Assembly (NCBI GenBank): GCA_038244255.1
Contig: JBBRTP010000001.1
Span: forward strand, 1 to 36,133
DNA length: 36,133 nt
From: Candidatus Saccharimonadia bacterium
GTDB taxonomy: Bacteria; Patescibacteriota; Saccharimonadia; UBA4664
Reading direction: 5' to 3'
Position numbers and translations under genes: made by a program. Shown piece by piece: positions 9,070-15,022 of this stretch. How positions within the stretch are numbered: the stretch's first letter is position 1; every line of letters begins with the position of its first letter. The notes under the pieces were generated by a model. The model worked only from the letters and a program-made list of their open reading frames with translations, did not search any database and was not told the origin of the DNA.

Positions 9070-10362
9070 CTACTTATCGAAGTACCTGATACTCCCAAAC
9101 GGGATCTTATCCTTCATGGGGTTCTTGCTTTTGATCACCTTGGCCGGCACGGCGGTGAGCTCACCGTATTTGTCGTTCACGGCGTTTAAGGCGTCCTCGA
9201 GCCGCTCCAGACGCACGTCCTCGCTCTCATACAACGCCAGCTGATCGGTCCGCGCCGGCTCTACAGCGTAGGCTGTGATGGCCAGCGACCCCAGCACGCG
9301 CCCGGGCGGGCTCTCGCCGAAGAGATCCATGGCCCGAAGGTAGAGCTGGTCGGCGCGGCGCGCGCTCGCGGCATACATCCGGCGGCCATGCCAACCCGAG
9401 CCATGCTGAAGCCTCCCCCACCTTGGCCCGGCCGGGTCGCCCACGTAGCCAAATTGGATCGCCAGCCCCCGCGCCGCGAGATTATTCACCTTGAGACGGC
9501 GTGCCACCTTGGCGGCCGCCTTGTAGAGGAGCGCCGCGATCTCCTCCGGATCGGCCGTGCGGTGCTCCAATACGTAGCTACGGCCGACGGTTCTGATGCC
9601 AAAGTCCACCTCGGTCTCATAGCCGCGCAGCTTGAGATACCTGTGGTGGCCGTTGATGCTTTTAAAAACTCGTTTGGTGAGCGTGGCTTCGGTAGCGGCC
9701 AGGAACTCCAGCGGCGTATAGATGCCAGCGTCGTTGAGCCGTATCTGATTACGCCGCTTAATGTAGGGCAGATCGGTCAGGCGCATCACGCCGTAAACAA
9801 CCTCCAGATTCTCCTGGTCGATGGTGTAGAGCCCGTCCGGCTTGAGGAATCCCGCCCCCAGCTTGGCCAGCCAGCGGTTACTAGCGATGCCAATGTTTAC
9901 CTTCATGTAGTCCCCCACCTCATCGCGAATCCGCTGCTTGATCTCGGCCGCCACGTCTTCCAGCGGTCGCCCCTTCATGATCCGCCGCATGCCAGTGAAG
10001 TCGATCACCCCCTCGTCGATACTCTTCATATAGGCCGTCTGCGAGTAGCTCTCGAAGATGGCTTTGAGCTTACGGTGCACGTACTGATACTTGGGCGCGT
10101 CGCTCTCGAGCATCACAAACCCCGGTGCCCGTAGCCGAGCCTCGCGATACCTCGTGCCCAGCGTGACCCCCAGCCGCTTGGCCTCATAGGAGGCCGTAAT
10201 GCAGATGGAGTAATCGTTAATACGGTTGGTAACCCCCACCGGCCGGCCGCGCAAGAGCGGATTGGCCTGCTGCTCGGTCATGGCGAAGGCCGAGTTGAGA
10301 TCGATATGCATGATCTCGGGGGGTTCGGGGTTGATGCGTAGGTTCATATGTTGACTATTCAA
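9070..10362 (-). CDS. dinB: Y-family DNA polymerase (DinB / Pol IV-like)
   Basis: MHIDLNSAFAMTEQQANPLLRGRPVGV and SIDEGVIDF motifs retain the catalytic D and DE. The second Asp of the DxD box is Asn. Confidence 0.85.
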   Translation of the reverse strand: MNSQHMNLRINPEPPEIMHIDLNSAFAMTEQQANPLLRGRPVGVTNRINDYSICITASYEAKRLGVTLGTRYREARLRAPGFVMLESDAPKYQYVHRKLKAIFESYSQTAYMKSIDEGVIDFTGMRRIMKGRPLEDVAAEIKQRIRDEVGDYMKVNIGIASNRWLAKLGAGFLKPDGLYTIDQENLEVVYGVMRLTDLPYIKRRNQIRLNDAGIYTPLEFLAATEATLTKRVFKSINGHHRYLKLRGYETEVDFGIRTVGRSYVLEHRTADPEEIAALLYKAAAKVARRLKVNNLAARGLAIQFGYVGDPAGPRWGRLQHGSGWHGRRMYAASARRADQLYLRAMDLFGESPPGRVLGSLAITAYAVEPARTDQLALYESEDVRLERLEDALNAVNDKYGELTAVPAKVIKSKNPMKDKIPFGSIRYFDK

Positions 10363-10427: not shown

Positions 10428-10832
10428 ATGGGAGCTCCGATGACCACAACGGCCACCGAAGACCGCACCAGCTACCCCAGCCTCCGCCCACACCACGACG
10501 ACGCCCTCCAGCCACTCGACCTCGTGCCTGGCCTCTGGATCGAGTACTTCGACGCCACCGAGGTCGGGGGGCCCAACGGCAGATCGACCCGTGACTACGG
10601 CCGTCGCTACGTCATCAGGCCCCCACACTGGGTGAACGGCAAGCTGGTCGTCACCCTGCTGACGAGCCCCGACTACCTGACCGACCCGCAGATCGCCGCC
10701 GGCGTCTTCGAGCGTCCCCAGACCACGAAGACCGAGCTCGCGAACCTCGGCATGGTGCCGGAGACAAACGGCCAGTGGCGCAATGCCTGGGTCATCAGAT
10801 CCGCGGATCAGTCCAGCCGCAAGACCGCCTAG
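10428..10832 (+). CDS. hypothetical protein, GC3-rich (start may be the ATG at 10440 behind GGGAG)
   Basis: Listed in the ORF track, with a promoter upstream and a terminator downstream. It is preferred over the antisense ORF 10368-10838. Confidence 0.55.
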   Translation: MGAPMTTTATEDRTSYPSLRPHHDDALQPLDLVPGLWIEYFDATEVGGPNGRSTRDYGRRYVIRPPHWVNGKLVVTLLTSPDYLTDPQIAAGVFERPQTTKTELANLGMVPETNGQWRNAWVIRSADQSSRKTA

Positions 10833-11061: not shown

Positions 11062-11319
11062 TCAGCCATAAAAGACCTCTTTGAGCGTCCACTCAAGCGT
11101 CTCGGGGTCGAGCTCCACGCGGAAGGCCGTCTCGCCCGAGGAGAAGCTAAAGATGTGAATCTGCTTGGTCCCCCGCCGCTCGGGGTGGTAGAGGCCCATG
11201 ATGCCCAGCTTGTAGCGCCGGCCCTGCCACTTCATGAGGTAGGGCGTGACCTGCACGGTGTTGTGCGGGCCCGGTACAAAAGCCGCCAGGATACTCACTT
11301 GGTCGTTGCATCTGTCCAT
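11062..11319 (-). CDS. hypothetical 85-aa protein downstream of the RT
   Basis: GGAG SD lies 7 nt before the ATG at 11319 (MDRCNDQ...). The ORF-track version 11062-11388 overlaps the RT stop codon. No recognisable domain. Confidence 0.5.
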   Translation of the reverse strand: MDRCNDQVSILAAFVPGPHNTVQVTPYLMKWQGRRYKLGIMGLYHPERRGTKQIHIFSFSSGETAFRVELDPETLEWTLKEVFYG

Positions 11320-11378
11320 TTGCCGCTCCTCTAGATCCGATACTATACCGTACATAAACCGAACGCAAGTGGTAAAGT

Positions 11379-12311
11379 TTATAGCCAAATCTTAGTCTTT
11401 ATGTCCTGCCTCAAACGATAACTATTAGCGTGCATGCAAAGCCCAAGGTACGACGAAATGTTAGCCTCATTTACCCGCTGTATCATCCGTAGCTTGGTCC
11501 TATTCCTGAGGCCAATGCTATGCGGTTTTACCACGTAGCCCAAGAAATCAATTCCCTGTCCCCAGCTGCGAATCGTCGTCTTACCCGGATGCAGAGTTAG
11601 CCCTAGCCGGTCATACAGAAACTCGGTCAGGACAGGGATTAGATCAAACAGGTGCTGCCGGCTAGTACTCAGGATTATAAAGTCGTCACAGTAGCGCAGA
11701 TACTGTTTCTCTCTAAGATGGTTCTTCACAAACCAATCAAACTCATGTAGGTAGACGTTAGCAAAGAGCTGGCTCGTCAGGTTACCCAGCGGGATCCCCT
11801 TGCCGGAGCTTGCGGGCAGGCTATCGATAATTGTTTGCAATAACTCTAAAGTTCTCTCGTCACCGATCCGCCGCTCAAGTAGATCCATCAGTATCGCATG
11901 ATCGACCGACGCAAAGAACTGTCTAACATCACATTTGAGGGCGTAGACCGTCTGCGTATTGTTTGTACTAGCTTGGCGCAGGAAGGTACGTAGTCGCGTC
12001 ACCGCCGCATGAGTACCTTTTTGCTTGCGACAAGAGTAACTGTCATGGATGAAACGACGATCAAACAATGGCTCGATGGCGCTGACAATCGCCTGGTGGA
12101 CGAGGCGATCCTCGACGGTGGCTTTATGAATTCGGCGCTGCTTGGGATCGCAGATCGTAAACGGACTATACCTACCATGTCGGTAGCTACCAGACTCAAG
12201 CTTTTGCTGTAATTCAAAGATGTTCACCTCGAGATGGCGTTCGTATCGCAGAACATCGGTACGTGAACGCTTACCCCGTTTAAACTTGTCCCAAGCGGCA
12301 AATAGCGCCAC
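11379..12311 (-). CDS. DGR-type reverse transcriptase
   Basis: RT motifs are present, including motif 4 IPLGNLTSQ (the DGR hallmark [ILV]GxxxSQ) and YCDD. There is no maturase/endonuclease tail. GTG start. TR, VR and Avd lie adjacent. Confidence 0.9.
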   Translation of the reverse strand: MALFAAWDKFKRGKRSRTDVLRYERHLEVNIFELQQKLESGSYRHGRYSPFTICDPKQRRIHKATVEDRLVHQAIVSAIEPLFDRRFIHDSYSCRKQKGTHAAVTRLRTFLRQASTNNTQTVYALKCDVRQFFASVDHAILMDLLERRIGDERTLELLQTIIDSLPASSGKGIPLGNLTSQLFANVYLHEFDWFVKNHLREKQYLRYCDDFIILSTSRQHLFDLIPVLTEFLYDRLGLTLHPGKTTIRSWGQGIDFLGYVVKPHSIGLRNRTKLRMIQRVNEANISSYLGLCMHANSYRLRQDIKTKIWL

Positions 12312-12312
12312 T

Positions 12313-12753
12313 ATGGAGACTGCTTCATTAAAACTTACCGAGGAATCTTTATGCCTAACAGGAACAAAATCTCGCCCCCCCCCTAAACTGAAGGGTAAGC
12401 TGTCCGGTGGGCTGTTTGATGTACCGATTATTCATACGCTCTACCAAACGTATCATTCCTGGAACGATTTATTGCTAAAGTTTCCTAAGGCTCAACGCTA
12501 CACACTAGGGCAGACTTGCCAAACGCAGCTGCTCACCCTCCTTGAAGCTACCGTGAGCGCAGCCGGGATAGCTGAAACCGAGTCTAAGGTAAAACAGCTG
12601 CGTCTTGCCTCGGCCAAGCTGGACGTATTACGTCTCCTGGTACGGCTCTGTAAGGACTGCAAATGCATCTCTAACGAAGCTTATCTGGAGACCGAATCCA
12701 AACTACACGAGATCGGACGCATGCTCGGTGGTTGGATCAAAGCTACCTCATAG
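12313..12753 (+). CDS. avd: Avd-like four-helix-bundle DGR accessory protein
   Basis: FPKAQRYTLGQTCQTQLLTLLEATVSAA...LRLASAKLDVLRLLVRLCKDCKCISNEAYLETESKLHEIGRMLGGWIK fits the family. The start is uncertain: ATG 12313, or ATG 12220 which would overlap the RT. Confidence 0.75.
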   Translation: METASLKLTEESLCLTGTKSRPPPKLKGKLSGGLFDVPIIHTLYQTYHSWNDLLLKFPKAQRYTLGQTCQTQLLTLLEATVSAAGIAETESKVKQLRLASAKLDVLRLLVRLCKDCKCISNEAYLETESKLHEIGRMLGGWIKATS

Positions 12754-12757
12754 AAAT

Positions 12758-12788
12758 AGTAAAGGAGCGCGATTAGCACTCCTTTACT
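12758..12788. other. 10-bp hairpin 11 nt from the 3' end of the TR
   Basis: AGTAAAGGAG-cgcgattagca-CTCCTTTACT. It could be the avd terminator, part of the DGR RNA spacer structure, or both. Confidence 0.5.
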
Positions 12789-12799
12789 ATATCGAGCAG

Positions 12800-12916
12800 T
12801 CCCTGAAGGCAACCATGGCAGTCTTGTGCCACCTGTTGTCATCCCAGTTGTTGTCGACATAGGCCTTGCGGCCATTGCGGTTGAAGTTCGGCAGGTTCCC
12901 GGAGTCGACGACCAAC
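12800..12916 (-). repeat. DGR template repeat (TR)
   Basis: Ungapped 117-bp match to 13287-13403. All 17 mismatches are A on the minus strand here. There are seven AAC/AAT codons when read in the VR frame. Confidence 0.9.
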
Positions 12917-13143
12917 TAGTTATGCACTCTTAGCCTTGCGTATCACTGAGCCCAGACGCATCCAGACTCTGTATTTTATGCGAGATCAACCATCTCAAGC
13001 CAAGAGCACGGAGTGCTTGATAAGCCACCTGCGCACTCTAGCAACCCGTAAGCGACTAGATCCTGGCAGTAATGTGGCAATCAAGAGATTTCGGCGACCA
13101 TAACTCCGTAAAGTCGGATTCATTAGCCTACTTTCCAGTTTTG

Positions 13144-13152
13144 ATTATACCA
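13144..13152 (-). promoter_or_regulatory. candidate extended -10 (TGgTATAAT) that could drive the TR transcript
   Basis: The minus strand reads TGGTATAAT. No clear -35 element. Confidence 0.3.
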
Positions 13153-13279
13153 AGACATGAAGAAGGGGCGCTCCTCCAACCTCTACTTTCGTAAAAATTG
13201 AATTTGCGCCCCTGCGGGGCGGAGGGCCAAGGAACAGAGTCCAAGGCCCTCCAAGCCCCAAGGGACCTAAGTCCGAGCC

Positions 13280-14080
13280 CTACAACTCCCTGAAGGCAAC
13301 CATGGCAGTCCCGTGCCACCTGCGGCCATCCCAGTAGCCGCCGACAAAGGCCTTGCGGCCATCGCGGAGGAAGCGCGGCAGGCTCCCGGAGCCGACGACC
13401 AACCCTGAGGCCAACATGAACGGGATGATAGTGCCATCCATTTTCACGTAGACCTGCGGGTTCAGCGCCAGTAGCCAAGCTACTTCGAGCCCAGGCCAGA
13501 ATCGCTGGAGCCGTCGCACCTCGGAAGGAACCACACCATCGGTGGGGTCCCAGTAGGTCTCAAGATCGAGGCCAACCGGTCCGAGACACTTCGTGTCCTC
13601 TTGCTCACTTTGCTCACTGCCGACATAGAAGCTCGTGCGACCGGGACCAGTATAGTCCTCGAAGGCAAAACCGCAAGCTTTGGCTTCATCCTCGAGCCAA
13701 GCTATGGCCTCGGCTCGGTCATGCTCCAGGCCCTTACCGAGCCGGATGGTGACACCGGTGGGCCGGAGTCTCCCAGCGTGATCCGTGAGATTAGCCGCCA
13801 AGGCAGCGGACTGCTTCTTAGTGAAGCCCCAGCCACGTAGCCTACTGCGAGCCATGATGCGCTCGACGTACTGGCTGACCGGCGTCCATGGGATGTCGGG
13901 AGCCGCTGGCGTAAGCAGTGTCGCGAAGGCACCGCGGTCGACCTGCGAGAGGTCGGCGTCGAGCATCCTCTGGATGAGATCACCGTTACCGAGCAGGTTC
14001 TGTACTTGCTCGACGGTCGGCTCGTCCCCGAAGAGGCTCAAGAGCTTCCGGGTCTGCTTCATCGTAGCGGGTGTCGGCAT
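13280..14080 (-). CDS. DGR target (variable) protein with a VR-encoded C-terminus
   Basis: ORF track lists 13280-14116 with a GTG start. The ATG at 14080 behind AGGCGG is preferred. The C-terminus is ...GGYWDGRRWHGTAMVAFREL, like the C-terminal variable regions of known DGR targets (comparison from memory). GC3-rich. Confidence 0.8.
   Translation of the reverse strand: MPTPATMKQTRKLLSLFGDEPTVEQVQNLLGNGDLIQRMLDADLSQVDRGAFATLLTPAAPDIPWTPVSQYVERIMARSRLRGWGFTKKQSAALAANLTDHAGRLRPTGVTIRLGKGLEHDRAEAIAWLEDEAKACGFAFEDYTGPGRTSFYVGSEQSEQEDTKCLGPVGLDLETYWDPTDGVVPSEVRRLQRFWPGLEVAWLLALNPQVYVKMDGTIIPFMLASGLVVGSGSLPRFLRDGRKAFVGGYWDGRRWHGTAMVAFREL
13287..13403 (-). repeat. DGR variable repeat (VR)
   Basis: It forms the last 39 codons of the target ORF and differs from the TR only at TR adenines. 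Confidence 0.9.
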
Positions 14081-14265
14081 GACAGTCCGCCTATTCTGCC
14101 GTCTAATTCTAGTCACGCACGGTGCGCGGTAGACTCAGACCAAGGTGTGAGAACGGCATACTGAGACCAAAAAGGAATTGGTCACAAAATACCGCTCTCA
14201 ACTGAAATGTAACGGATTGTCAAAATACAAATGTATTATACTACTAAACACTTATTCTGTCAATA

Positions 14266-14676
14266 TTATGTATTAGGCACTAACCTGGCGCTCGGTGCCT
14301 GATTGGCTAGCTTCGCATCAAACGTCCAGAGCGGCTCGGCATGGTTAAGCTCGGCGTAAGTGGCTAGGCAGCAGTCTTCGAAGGAGAGCTTGGGGTTACT
14401 GGAGTACAGCGGTAGCGCCCACTCAAAGAGTCCACGGTTACAGTTAATCTCAGCCAGTGCCATAACGCCGGTGACGGCCTCGGCCACTTGAGCACGAGTG
14501 AACTCATAATTGCGCTCTAGCACAAAGACCACCTCAATAATCGCCGTGTCGGCGATGGCAAATTGGCCCTGCGCAGCCTCGAACAGTCGAGCCACTGCCC
14601 GGTGCTGATCGGCAACGTCGTTCAGGAGTAATCGCAGAAGCACATTAGCATCGAGTGAACCAGCGAACGCTGCCAT
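14266..14676 (-). CDS. vapC: PIN-domain toxin
   Basis: The acidic tetrad context is present (LDANVLL, IIEVVFV, FEDCCLA, WTFD). It abuts the antitoxin gene. Confidence 0.85.
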   Translation of the reverse strand: MAAFAGSLDANVLLRLLLNDVADQHRAVARLFEAAQGQFAIADTAIIEVVFVLERNYEFTRAQVAEAVTGVMALAEINCNRGLFEWALPLYSSNPKLSFEDCCLATYAELNHAEPLWTFDAKLANQAPSARLVPNT

Positions 14677-14936
14677 TACTGCCCTACCCCACGATGAGCC
14701 TGATAATACTCGTCGACACTCACTACTGGGCGAGTACGGGGCTTAACGTAGCGCGAGATCCGCTCACTGAGCTCAGCTATATTCACGAGCTTCGAGATCA
14801 CCAGCTCGCCCTTACGCTCGTCAAAGCTTATCAGTAGTACGCCGCCGGTCTTGTCCAAGCCAAGCTTACGACGCACCGGTGCCGGCAGGGTCGTCTGACC
14901 CTTAGTAGTAATTGTAATCGTATTCTTCATGCTCAT
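14676..14936 (-). CDS. vapB: AbrB/SpoVT-fold antitoxin
   Basis: ITITTKGQTTLPAPVRRKLGL motif. Its stop overlaps the vapC start. Confidence 0.75.
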   Translation of the reverse strand: MSMKNTITITTKGQTTLPAPVRRKLGLDKTGGVLLISFDERKGELVISKLVNIAELSERISRYVKPRTRPVVSVDEYYQAHRGVGQ

Positions 14937-15022
14937 TACTATACACAATTGTATTACTTATTGCAAAATGTAATGGATTAGCATCTTGGGCAAAGAAAGA
15001 GCCACCCTATTACGAGGGTGGC

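Follow-up and report, generated by a model that had tools for sequence, protein, structure and literature searches.

A chromosomal diversity-generating retroelement of a Candidatus Saccharimonadia bacterium with a homopolymeric G:C tract in the overlap of its divergent reverse transcriptase and avd genes

Introduction

Bacteria of the Candidate Phyla Radiation (CPR) carry a large share of the known diversity-generating retroelements (DGRs). Uncontrolled mutagenic retrohoming should be costly, and to our knowledge little is understood of how DGRs are regulated. Here we describe a DGR in a 36,133-nt stretch of a Candidatus Saccharimonadia bacterium (assembly GCA_038244255.1, contig JBBRTP010000001.1, positions 1 to 36,133; hereafter the window). 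Its reverse transcriptase (RT) and avd genes overlap head to head, and a run of nine C:G pairs lies inside both coding regions. We consider it probable that this is a CPR DGR of the B3 architecture in which the slippage-prone, phase-variable tract acts as a switch or an attenuator on RT and Avd, and that the window shows it in a reduced or off state.

The DGR of phage BPP-1 (mtd-avd-TR-brt) shares several features with the element: adenine-specific transfer from a template repeat (TR) to a variable repeat (VR), a VR at the C-terminal end of the target, an Avd partner, an RT with an I/LGxxxSQ motif (the RT in the window is closest to bRT), VR and TR 3′ junctions that are not identical, and a GC hairpin after the VR. 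The two differ in that avd is inverted in the window and overlaps the start of RT, and the 140-nt spacer between TR and RT is absent, the 3′ side of the TR consisting of a short hairpin followed by antisense avd. In addition, the main conserved structured RNA in the window is located 5′ of the TR, the element resides in the chromosome of a CPR bacterium rather than in a phage, and its target is not Mtd-like.

Of the CPR DGRs, 90% are reported to have architecture B3, whose order is TR-(avd)-RT and in which avd is encoded by the reverse strand (Wu et al. 2018, PMC5758913), and the DGRs of Patescibacteria fall in DGR clade 2 (Roux et al. 2021, PMC8144416). The element in the window is a chromosomal member of this known CPR B3 clade and, as such, ordinary: it agrees with the clade in gene order, in strands, in a Saccharibacteria host lineage judged from its relatives, and in having a target without a recognizable domain, as most CPR targets do. 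The order target-VR, TR, avd (opposite strand), RT is the same in a related locus that we obtained from three assemblies (L001/L002/L009). Nothing separates the element from the clade; the gene overlap, the G:C tract and the RNA domain 5′ of the TR are features of the clade that were not found in PMC5758913, PMC8144416 or full-text searches.

Results and Discussion

The element is a DGR

The repeat search of the window returned a single direct repeat of 117 nt, gapless and with 85% identity between its copies (Table 1). On the minus strand, all 17 mismatches fell on TR adenines (A>G, 11; A>C, 3; A>T, 3), 12 of the 29 TR adenines were kept, and none of the 88 non-adenine positions differed in the VR (hypergeometric P = 4.3e-13 for 17 of 17 mismatches on 29 adenines among 117 positions). 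Read in the VR frame, codon positions 1 or 2 held all 29 TR adenines and all 17 changes, which is the usual design of a DGR template. The TR contains no open reading frame (ORF) with homologues, and the VR lies inside a protein-coding target gene, at its C-terminal end, where VRs usually are. When an adenine-masked TR pattern was used to look for a second target across the window, only the TR and the VR matched. The identity of TR and VR at every non-adenine position suggests that the element was recently active.

An earlier note on this DNA, made from its letters alone, had described the gapless 117-bp pair, the 17 mismatches confined to template adenines with 12 of 29 unchanged, and the VR as the last 39 codons of ORF 13280-14080. 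All of this was borne out by the repeat search and the alignment, and the tabulation of mismatch classes that the note had called for showed no mismatch at a non-adenine template position. Its peptide translations, with seven Asn codons and 12 changed codons, were also correct.

Table 1 Features of the element and their positions in the window
Feature	Position	Strand	Description	Basis
RT gene	11379-12435	-	Body 11379-12311 open from GTG 12311; conserved leader from ATG 12435, in another frame	Pfam RVT_1 2.3e-22
avd	12313-12753	+	Opposite RT, TR and VR	NCBIfam DivGenRetAVD and Pfam bAvd
Overlap of the 5′ coding ends of RT and avd	12351-12435	.	Head to head, 85 nt	Frames and relatives
Homopolymer tract	12375-12383	.	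C9 on the plus strand, G9 on the RT strand; inside both coding regions; sets both frames	Longest homopolymer in the window
3′ flank of TR	12753-12799	.	Conserved CUGCUCGAUA, then 18-bp hairpin 12753-12793 abutting the avd stop	Inverted repeat and fold
TR	12800-12916	-	Non-coding, 29 adenines	Repeat search and alignment
Structured RNA domain	12924-13062	-	Conserved, directly 5′ of TR	43-locus alignment, RNAalifold, covariation test
GC-rich nested hairpin	13208-13266	-	About 20 nt after VR; repeated CUUGG motifs	Fold z = -3.98; 0 of 200 shuffles fold as well
IMH-like 3′ end of VR (see text)	13277-13310	-	Last 24 repeat bases with four unmutated A, then GTTGTAGGGC; TR flank, CTGCTCGATA	
Target (variable protein) gene	13280-14080	-	266 aa from ATG 14080; ORF open from GTG 14116	ORF list and homologues
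VR	13287-13403	-	Final 39 codons of the target	Repeat search and alignment
Promoter-like site	14235-14263	-	TTGACA-17-TATAAT, 12 of 12 consensus matches	Consensus match only

In a sequence search of the PDB, the best match of the RT was bRT of the Bordetella phage (8ub7, E 1.7e-43). The group II intron enzyme GsI-IIC reached 2e-18, and an entry titled 'Retron-type reverse transcriptase' reached 4e-16. The RT carries YCDD and LGNLTSQ, a motif 4 of the [ILV]GxxxSQ type that the earlier note had also read there. By these similarities it appears to belong to the DGR lineage and to be closer to DGR RTs than to those of group II introns or retrons. It has more than 7,000 homologues, and the related ones are annotated as Saccharimonadales or Patescibacteria. 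Avd, an accessory protein of most DGRs, scored 81.3 bits with the DGR-Avd equivalog model DivGenRetAVD of NCBIfam (cut-off 80) and 61.9 with Pfam bAvd (cut-off 40; 9.5e-17). Approximately 50 of the 80 metagenome loci fetched as relatives showed a TR/VR pair at the same distances, with mismatches that were mostly adenine-only.

A reading in which the RT derives from a group II intron, a retron or a defense system, and the repeat is a chance duplication, draws on the NCBIfam matches of the RT: the highest-ranking one, to a group II intron RT model, had 152.9 bits where the cut-off is 300, and no DGR RT family was among them. Against this stand bRT, whose lead over the other solved relatives is 25 orders of magnitude, the adjoining avd, mismatches restricted to adenines (P = 4e-13), tens of relatives with the same layout, and an Rfam scan in which no intron RNA family was detected. 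We rejected this reading, to which we give practically no chance, on the adenine-only mismatches, the Avd match, the similarity to bRT and the layouts of the related loci. An adenine-specific TR/VR pair, a DGR-type RT, Avd, a C-terminal VR, an IMH-like junction and a GC hairpin after the VR are all present, and we regard it as near certain that the element is a genuine DGR, as the earlier note had concluded.

A homopolymer sets the frames of two overlapping genes

The description of this DGR as complete is not established for the assembled sequence, since with the C9 tract neither RT nor avd is uninterrupted from its conserved start. The interruption concerns the activity of the element in this assembly and leaves its identity as a DGR untouched. 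ORF 11379-12311, which had been taken for the complete RT gene, starts at a GTG downstream of the frame break and is short of about 41 residues at the N-terminus, which the relatives conserve. In the window, the frame stays open 5′ of GTG 12311 and shows homology to the closest homologues (72-76% identity; ...VSFNEAVSIV ALFAAW vs. ...SSFDYICSTVSLFAAW), and it runs upstream to a stop at 12434 without any ATG, GTG or TTG. The ATG at 12435-12433 encodes MNNRYIKQPTGQLTLQF, which is the N-terminus of the relatives (MNNRDIDQTPTQLSLDF; pattern MNNRDI..QLSL.F) but in a different frame, and with C9 as assembled the ORF that it opens stops after 26 codons. The first canonical start of the RT body in the C9 state is therefore GTG 12311, and the conserved N-terminal block (SFxxIxS...), which is kept by all relatives and which bRT appears to share, is lost. 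Because a start at GTG 12311 removes this block, the resulting RT product would presumably be impaired.

The Avd partner had been recognized correctly in the earlier note, which overlooked that its gene lies on the strand opposite to RT, TR and VR. The same opposite orientation to RT was observed in 68 of the 68 loci with an Avd match next to a related RT. As assembled, avd is in frame from ATG 12313 only (146 aa), a start one base away from GTG 12311. From ATG 12351, the conserved position at whose equivalent avd starts in relatives without the tract, C9 yields MPNRNKISPPP followed by TAA, an 11-codon ORF, and C8 yields an Avd of 133 aa.

The overlap spans the first 20-28 codons of the two divergently transcribed genes, and the tract within it codes for Gly-Gly-Gly in RT and for Pro-Pro-Pro in Avd. 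We simulated the frames in the window with C8, C9, C10 and C11. Simulated C8 or C11 gave a 351- or 352-aa RT from ATG 12435 together with a 133- or 134-aa Avd from ATG 12351, the full RT product of the G8 state being the one of 351 aa. With simulated C10 and with the actual C9, neither conserved ATG was in frame. The closest relatives, L090 and L091, have no homopolymer, and both of their genes are in frame from the equivalent ATGs (RT, MNNRDIERAPAQLSLFSTGVSHNISLLSSFDY...; Avd, MTNPSTKQTKLSGSPLDVPIVH...). Moreover, a His codon of either gene lies antisense to the start codon of the other. The head-to-head overlap, about 25 codons long, is therefore real, and any change in tract length reframes both genes. 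A role of the tract as a spacer between divergent promoters was rejected, as the relatives without it have continuous ORFs across its position on both strands.

The tract is conserved in position and variable in length

Related loci were surveyed for a G run of at least 7 within 130 nt upstream of the RT core. The tract was present in 43 of 77 non-redundant loci, always with G on the RT strand, and the remaining 421,830 nt of these loci contained four G runs and no C run of such length. Tract lengths in the 43 loci were G7 (4 loci), G8 (5), G9 (16), G10 (11), G11 (5), G12 (1) and G26 (1). The surroundings were conserved as well, with an ATG-x-AAY-MGG leader upstream and, approximately 10 nt downstream, a CAT that is the ATG of avd on the other strand. 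In most evaluable loci, the tract length that places RT in frame is also the one that places Avd in frame. The 26-base run was found in L016, about 87 nt upstream of the RT core at the avd/RT junction, and is either an extreme expansion or an assembly artefact.

Tract length also varied among alleles that are otherwise the same. L044 and L049 are 99.3% identical over 2,438 nt and differ only by one G of the tract and by N's at 17 VR positions facing TR adenines. A single RT allele at the DNA level occurred with G8 (L093), G9 (L094-L097) and G10 (L098, L099), and the G6 runs of the same loci were constant. A single G of the tract is all that separates L094 from L098 and L099 across 2,610 nt that contain TR and VR. 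Protein clusters at 90% identity, with near-identical RT bodies (at most a few substitutions), contained all three frames as well as in-frame variants of +/-3; their members have the conserved leader with GGG or GGGG, have a shifted-frame leader (MIGTFWNCPG..., MLLAEKLSGGG), or were called from downstream starts. Thus, a homopolymer of at least about 7 that alters the frame was found in the window, and length polymorphism among identical alleles in its relatives, which are two of the features that characterize a phase-variable contingency locus.

The likeness to the homopolymeric contingency loci of Neisseria, Haemophilus, Campylobacter and Helicobacter, and to the poly-C of Bordetella fim, extends to a G:C run of 7-12 near a coding 5′ end, to one-base length differences between otherwise identical alleles and to the occurrence of all three frames in nature. 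Unlike in those loci, one tract lies here in two genes on opposite strands, so that one slip reframes both, and the genes that it would control form a mutator and are neither a surface antigen nor a restriction-modification gene. In a limited check, the tract was not described in Wu et al. (2018), in Roux et al. (2021) or in full-text searches on DGR homopolymers, phase variation or frameshift. Its position in an antisense overlap, its conservation and its length polymorphism appear to be undescribed, and the function that we attribute to it is a proposal based on these features.

Two side observations concern the VR of these loci. At 383-500, the VR of L049 has N at 17 positions, each facing a TR adenine, where L044, which is from another sample, has defined bases (1540-1657); the N's probably represent VR heterogeneity collapsed by the assembler. 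In L094, L098 and L099, which represent one strain in different samples, VR and TR are identical despite the difference between G9 and G10. This fits little or no diversification in the shifted states, in a comparison of three contigs.

An ordinary, intact CPR DGR would be seen in the window if the true tract were C8, the ninth C a sequencing or assembly error, and the tract regulated nothing. One base fewer would restore both genes exactly, homopolymers are error-prone in sequencing, and the agreement of TR and VR at all non-adenine positions suggests a recently active element. However, G9 was found in all three independent assemblies of one related locus (L001/L002/L009), which argues against random assembler noise. 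In addition, different tract lengths recur in several contigs each, the G6 runs in the same loci are invariant, most relatives are likewise outside the conserved frame, and an error cannot explain a position and strand that are conserved in 43 of 77 loci. We hold a miscounted C8 to be rather improbable as the whole explanation.

Frame states of the tract and their meaning

Among 35 loci with a measurable register, 6 were in the conserved frame, 21 had one extra base, like the window, and 8 were in the third state (chi-square P = 0.003). The predominance of the state with one extra base could also reflect a tract that acts at the level of RNA or translation, with RNA polymerase slippage or +1 ribosomal frameshifting providing a constant low output of RT and Avd from an out-of-frame genome, and DNA length variation as a by-product. 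Such a shift could take place at CCC-UAA in the avd mRNA and, in that of RT, at the G run. The avd mini-ORF of the window ends in CCC CCC CCC TAA, where a +1 shift would give the same protein as C8, and Pro-Pro-Pro is known to stall ribosomes. As in programmed slippage and +1 frameshifting (dnaX, IS elements, prfB), a homopolymer lies between the start codon and an out-of-frame body, and in the avd leader of the window a stop follows the run directly. In contrast to those systems, no conserved stimulatory element was found here and the frame offset varies among relatives. Further points against constant recoding are that relatives without the tract are simply in frame, that identical alleles with three different frames could not all be served by a single fixed shift, and that the bases directly behind the tract show no conservation of a shift site. 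Such an RNA-level effect as the main role of the tract seems unlikely to us, if somewhat less so than a miscount; it is compatible with switching at the DNA level, and the two are not mutually exclusive.

The frameshift might also be the first step in the pseudogenization of a decaying DGR, with a functionless tract. Clear remnants do occur among the relatives (L003/L004, L005, L007). No other lesion was found in the window, though, where the RT motifs, Avd, TR, RNA domain and hairpins are intact and TR and VR show no non-adenine difference, and the break falls exactly in a tract that is conserved and reversible across the clade. Decay is accordingly a quite improbable account of this locus.

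From which of the start codons upstream the RT and Avd bodies can be read depends on the length of the tract. The most economical reading, and in our judgment the probable one, is that tract slippage would thereby set whether, or how strongly, the mutagenic machinery is made. A wider version of it is that, in a large part of the CPR DGR clade, one hypermutable G:C tract forms a heritable and reversible on/off or level switch for avd and RT, with most populations shifted, rare in-frame variants carrying out diversification, and the main protein-binding scaffold of the DGR RNA on the 5′ instead of the 3′ side of the TR. For this wider version we see the case as evenly balanced.

Several points weigh against our reading of the locus. 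The assembly may have miscounted a true C8 as the C9 of the window. No more than 6 of the 35 tract-bearing relatives are in the conserved frame, with one extra base in 21, and some genomes have shifted-frame start codons (MIGT..., MLLAEKLSGGG); 'off' may thus mean a different leader or a lower level rather than silence. With the DNA unchanged, the frame could still be restored by slippage of RNA polymerase or by a +1 shift of the ribosome on the tract. Finally, the target domain has no significant match to a C-type lectin or to any other fold.

If the tract does gate RT and Avd, several observations would find an explanation. Tiny genomes could keep a mutator poised but mostly quiet, one mutator being gated by another mutational device, and the odd or truncated N-termini annotated for many CPR RT genes would be accounted for. 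Tract length would then offer a simple sequence read-out for comparison with VR turnover in metagenomic time series, and many live elements may be discarded or given a wrong start in DGR surveys that accept intact RT ORFs only.

Structured RNA and cis elements around the repeats

The RNA domain directly 5′ of the TR is closed by a helix of 12 bp (13009-12998 with 12935-12924) that encloses two inner hairpins, and RNAalifold on 43 loci showed compensatory changes in 11 of its 12 pairs. In this helix, 93.4% of the alignment cells were paired, compared with 39-49% when the partner strand was slid, and none of 500 shuffles reached the observed covariation. One of the inner hairpins also covaries, and the second is poorly aligned because of insertions. 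The single-sequence fold of the window reproduced the same arrangement. In Rfam, only tRNAs reached the gathering thresholds in the window, and around the TR there were only chance matches at E ≤ 10. The domain is apparently undescribed.

The RNA to which RT and Avd bind in BPP-1 is on the 3′ side of the TR (Handa et al., bioRxiv 10.1101/2023.10.23.563531). Because the conserved structure is mainly 5′ of the TR in the window, the DGR RNA would, by analogy, be rearranged. The domain provides a concrete construct for the in vitro reconstitution of a CPR DGR.

On the 3′ side of the TR, relatives have a hairpin and a U-run at the position equivalent to that of the 18-bp hairpin, which suggests a short, separately terminated TR RNA. 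The hairpin is symmetric enough that it could serve as a two-way terminator for both the TR and the avd transcripts, and it may also be a putative Avd-binding stem-loop. Past the hairpin, the RT-sense strand runs antisense to the C-terminal motif EIGRMLGGWI of Avd.

After the shared repeat end (...TTCAGGGA), the VR continues with GTTGTAG and the TR with CTGCTCG, a difference that is conserved among relatives; the 3′ junctions read ...GGGAGTTGTAG in the VR and ...GGGACTGCTCG in the TR in the window, L090, L091 and L011. The arrangement resembles the initiation of mutagenic homing (IMH) sequence of BPP-1 and its TR counterpart IMH*, and by this resemblance the junction may play a corresponding role. 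The GC hairpin after the VR has counterparts in eight relatives, including L090, L091, L001, L011, L012, L014 and L017. No convincing promoter for TR, avd or RT was found in a scan for the sigma-70 consensus.

By analogy with BPP-1, from which the retrohoming steps and the RNA boundaries are taken, the element could work as follows. A short RNA consisting of the structured 5′ domain, the 117-nt TR and the 3′ hairpin next to the avd stop would be transcribed, and an RT-Avd complex would copy the TR with misincorporation opposite adenines. The cDNA would then take the place of the VR, with the IMH-like junction and the GC hairpin as guides. The outcome would be a 266-aa target whose last 39 codons are rewritten, with as many as 29 adenine positions open to change. 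What we observed directly is the anatomy of the element, the assignment of its parts to families, the relations between its frames, and a tract that is conserved and, among relatives, polymorphic in length.

The target protein

The target has 71 full-length homologues of approximately 262 aa, all of which end in ...VAFRE and none of which has a Pfam match. Their C-termini follow the pattern GLVV.S..VP.F.R.S..AYV...W...RW...SVVAFRE and vary mostly at codons that contain adenines in the TR of the window. Searches of Pfam, NCBIfam and PDB with the single target sequence were empty, and Pfam searches with 51 family members individually and a PDB search with a profile built from these 51 also returned nothing. 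The AlphaFold model of the target (51 homologues) had a mean predicted local distance difference test score (pLDDT) of 93.3 and a predicted template modeling score (pTM) of 0.82. Foldseek searches of this model against PDB and BFVD gave no match at E ≤ 0.001, and their only hint was a viral C-type lectin (E 2.8); a C-type lectin or Ig fold typically displays the VR in DGRs but does not define them. Inspection of the N-terminus by eye revealed neither a signal peptide nor a hydrophobic segment. The promoter-like site is approximately 120-155 nt upstream of the possible target starts (14116 and 14080).

An exact look-up of the target protein of the window returned no contig. In a genome scan with a subset of 13 sequences, the contigs encoding relatives of the target were metagenome-assembled genomes of Candidatus Saccharibacteria. 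Some targets in related Saccharibacteria look decayed or orphaned: beside them, only a C-terminal RT fragment is left (residues 244-307 or 188-309; L003/L004, 7239-7430; L005, 3405-3770), and L007 has a target homologue with no RT within 5 kb. Relatives with a lost or fragmentary cassette were thus found repeatedly, and loss of the DGR is therefore common in this target family.

Genomic context

No phage genes were seen among the window genes around the cassette. The G+C content of the RT-avd-TR segment (11500-13000) was 49-50%, and that of the flanks and of the target gene 55-60%; an average of 43% was found for the related cassettes that were retrieved. Two small ORFs near RT had no family match and no counterpart beside related RTs. 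One of them, on the minus strand (11062-11388, 108 aa), overlaps the RT stop codon by 10 nt and was rejected as a DGR component for these two reasons; the other (10428-10832, 134 aa) is on the plus strand. The cassette is flanked by a gene for a Y-family polymerase (9070-10362) and, at 14266-14948, by a toxin-antitoxin pair on the minus strand, a PIN-domain toxin with an AbrB/MazE-type antitoxin, which lies directly upstream of the promoter-like site of the target. Neighboring ORFs, judged from sequence alone, resemble guanylate kinase, dCMP deaminase and NrdR.

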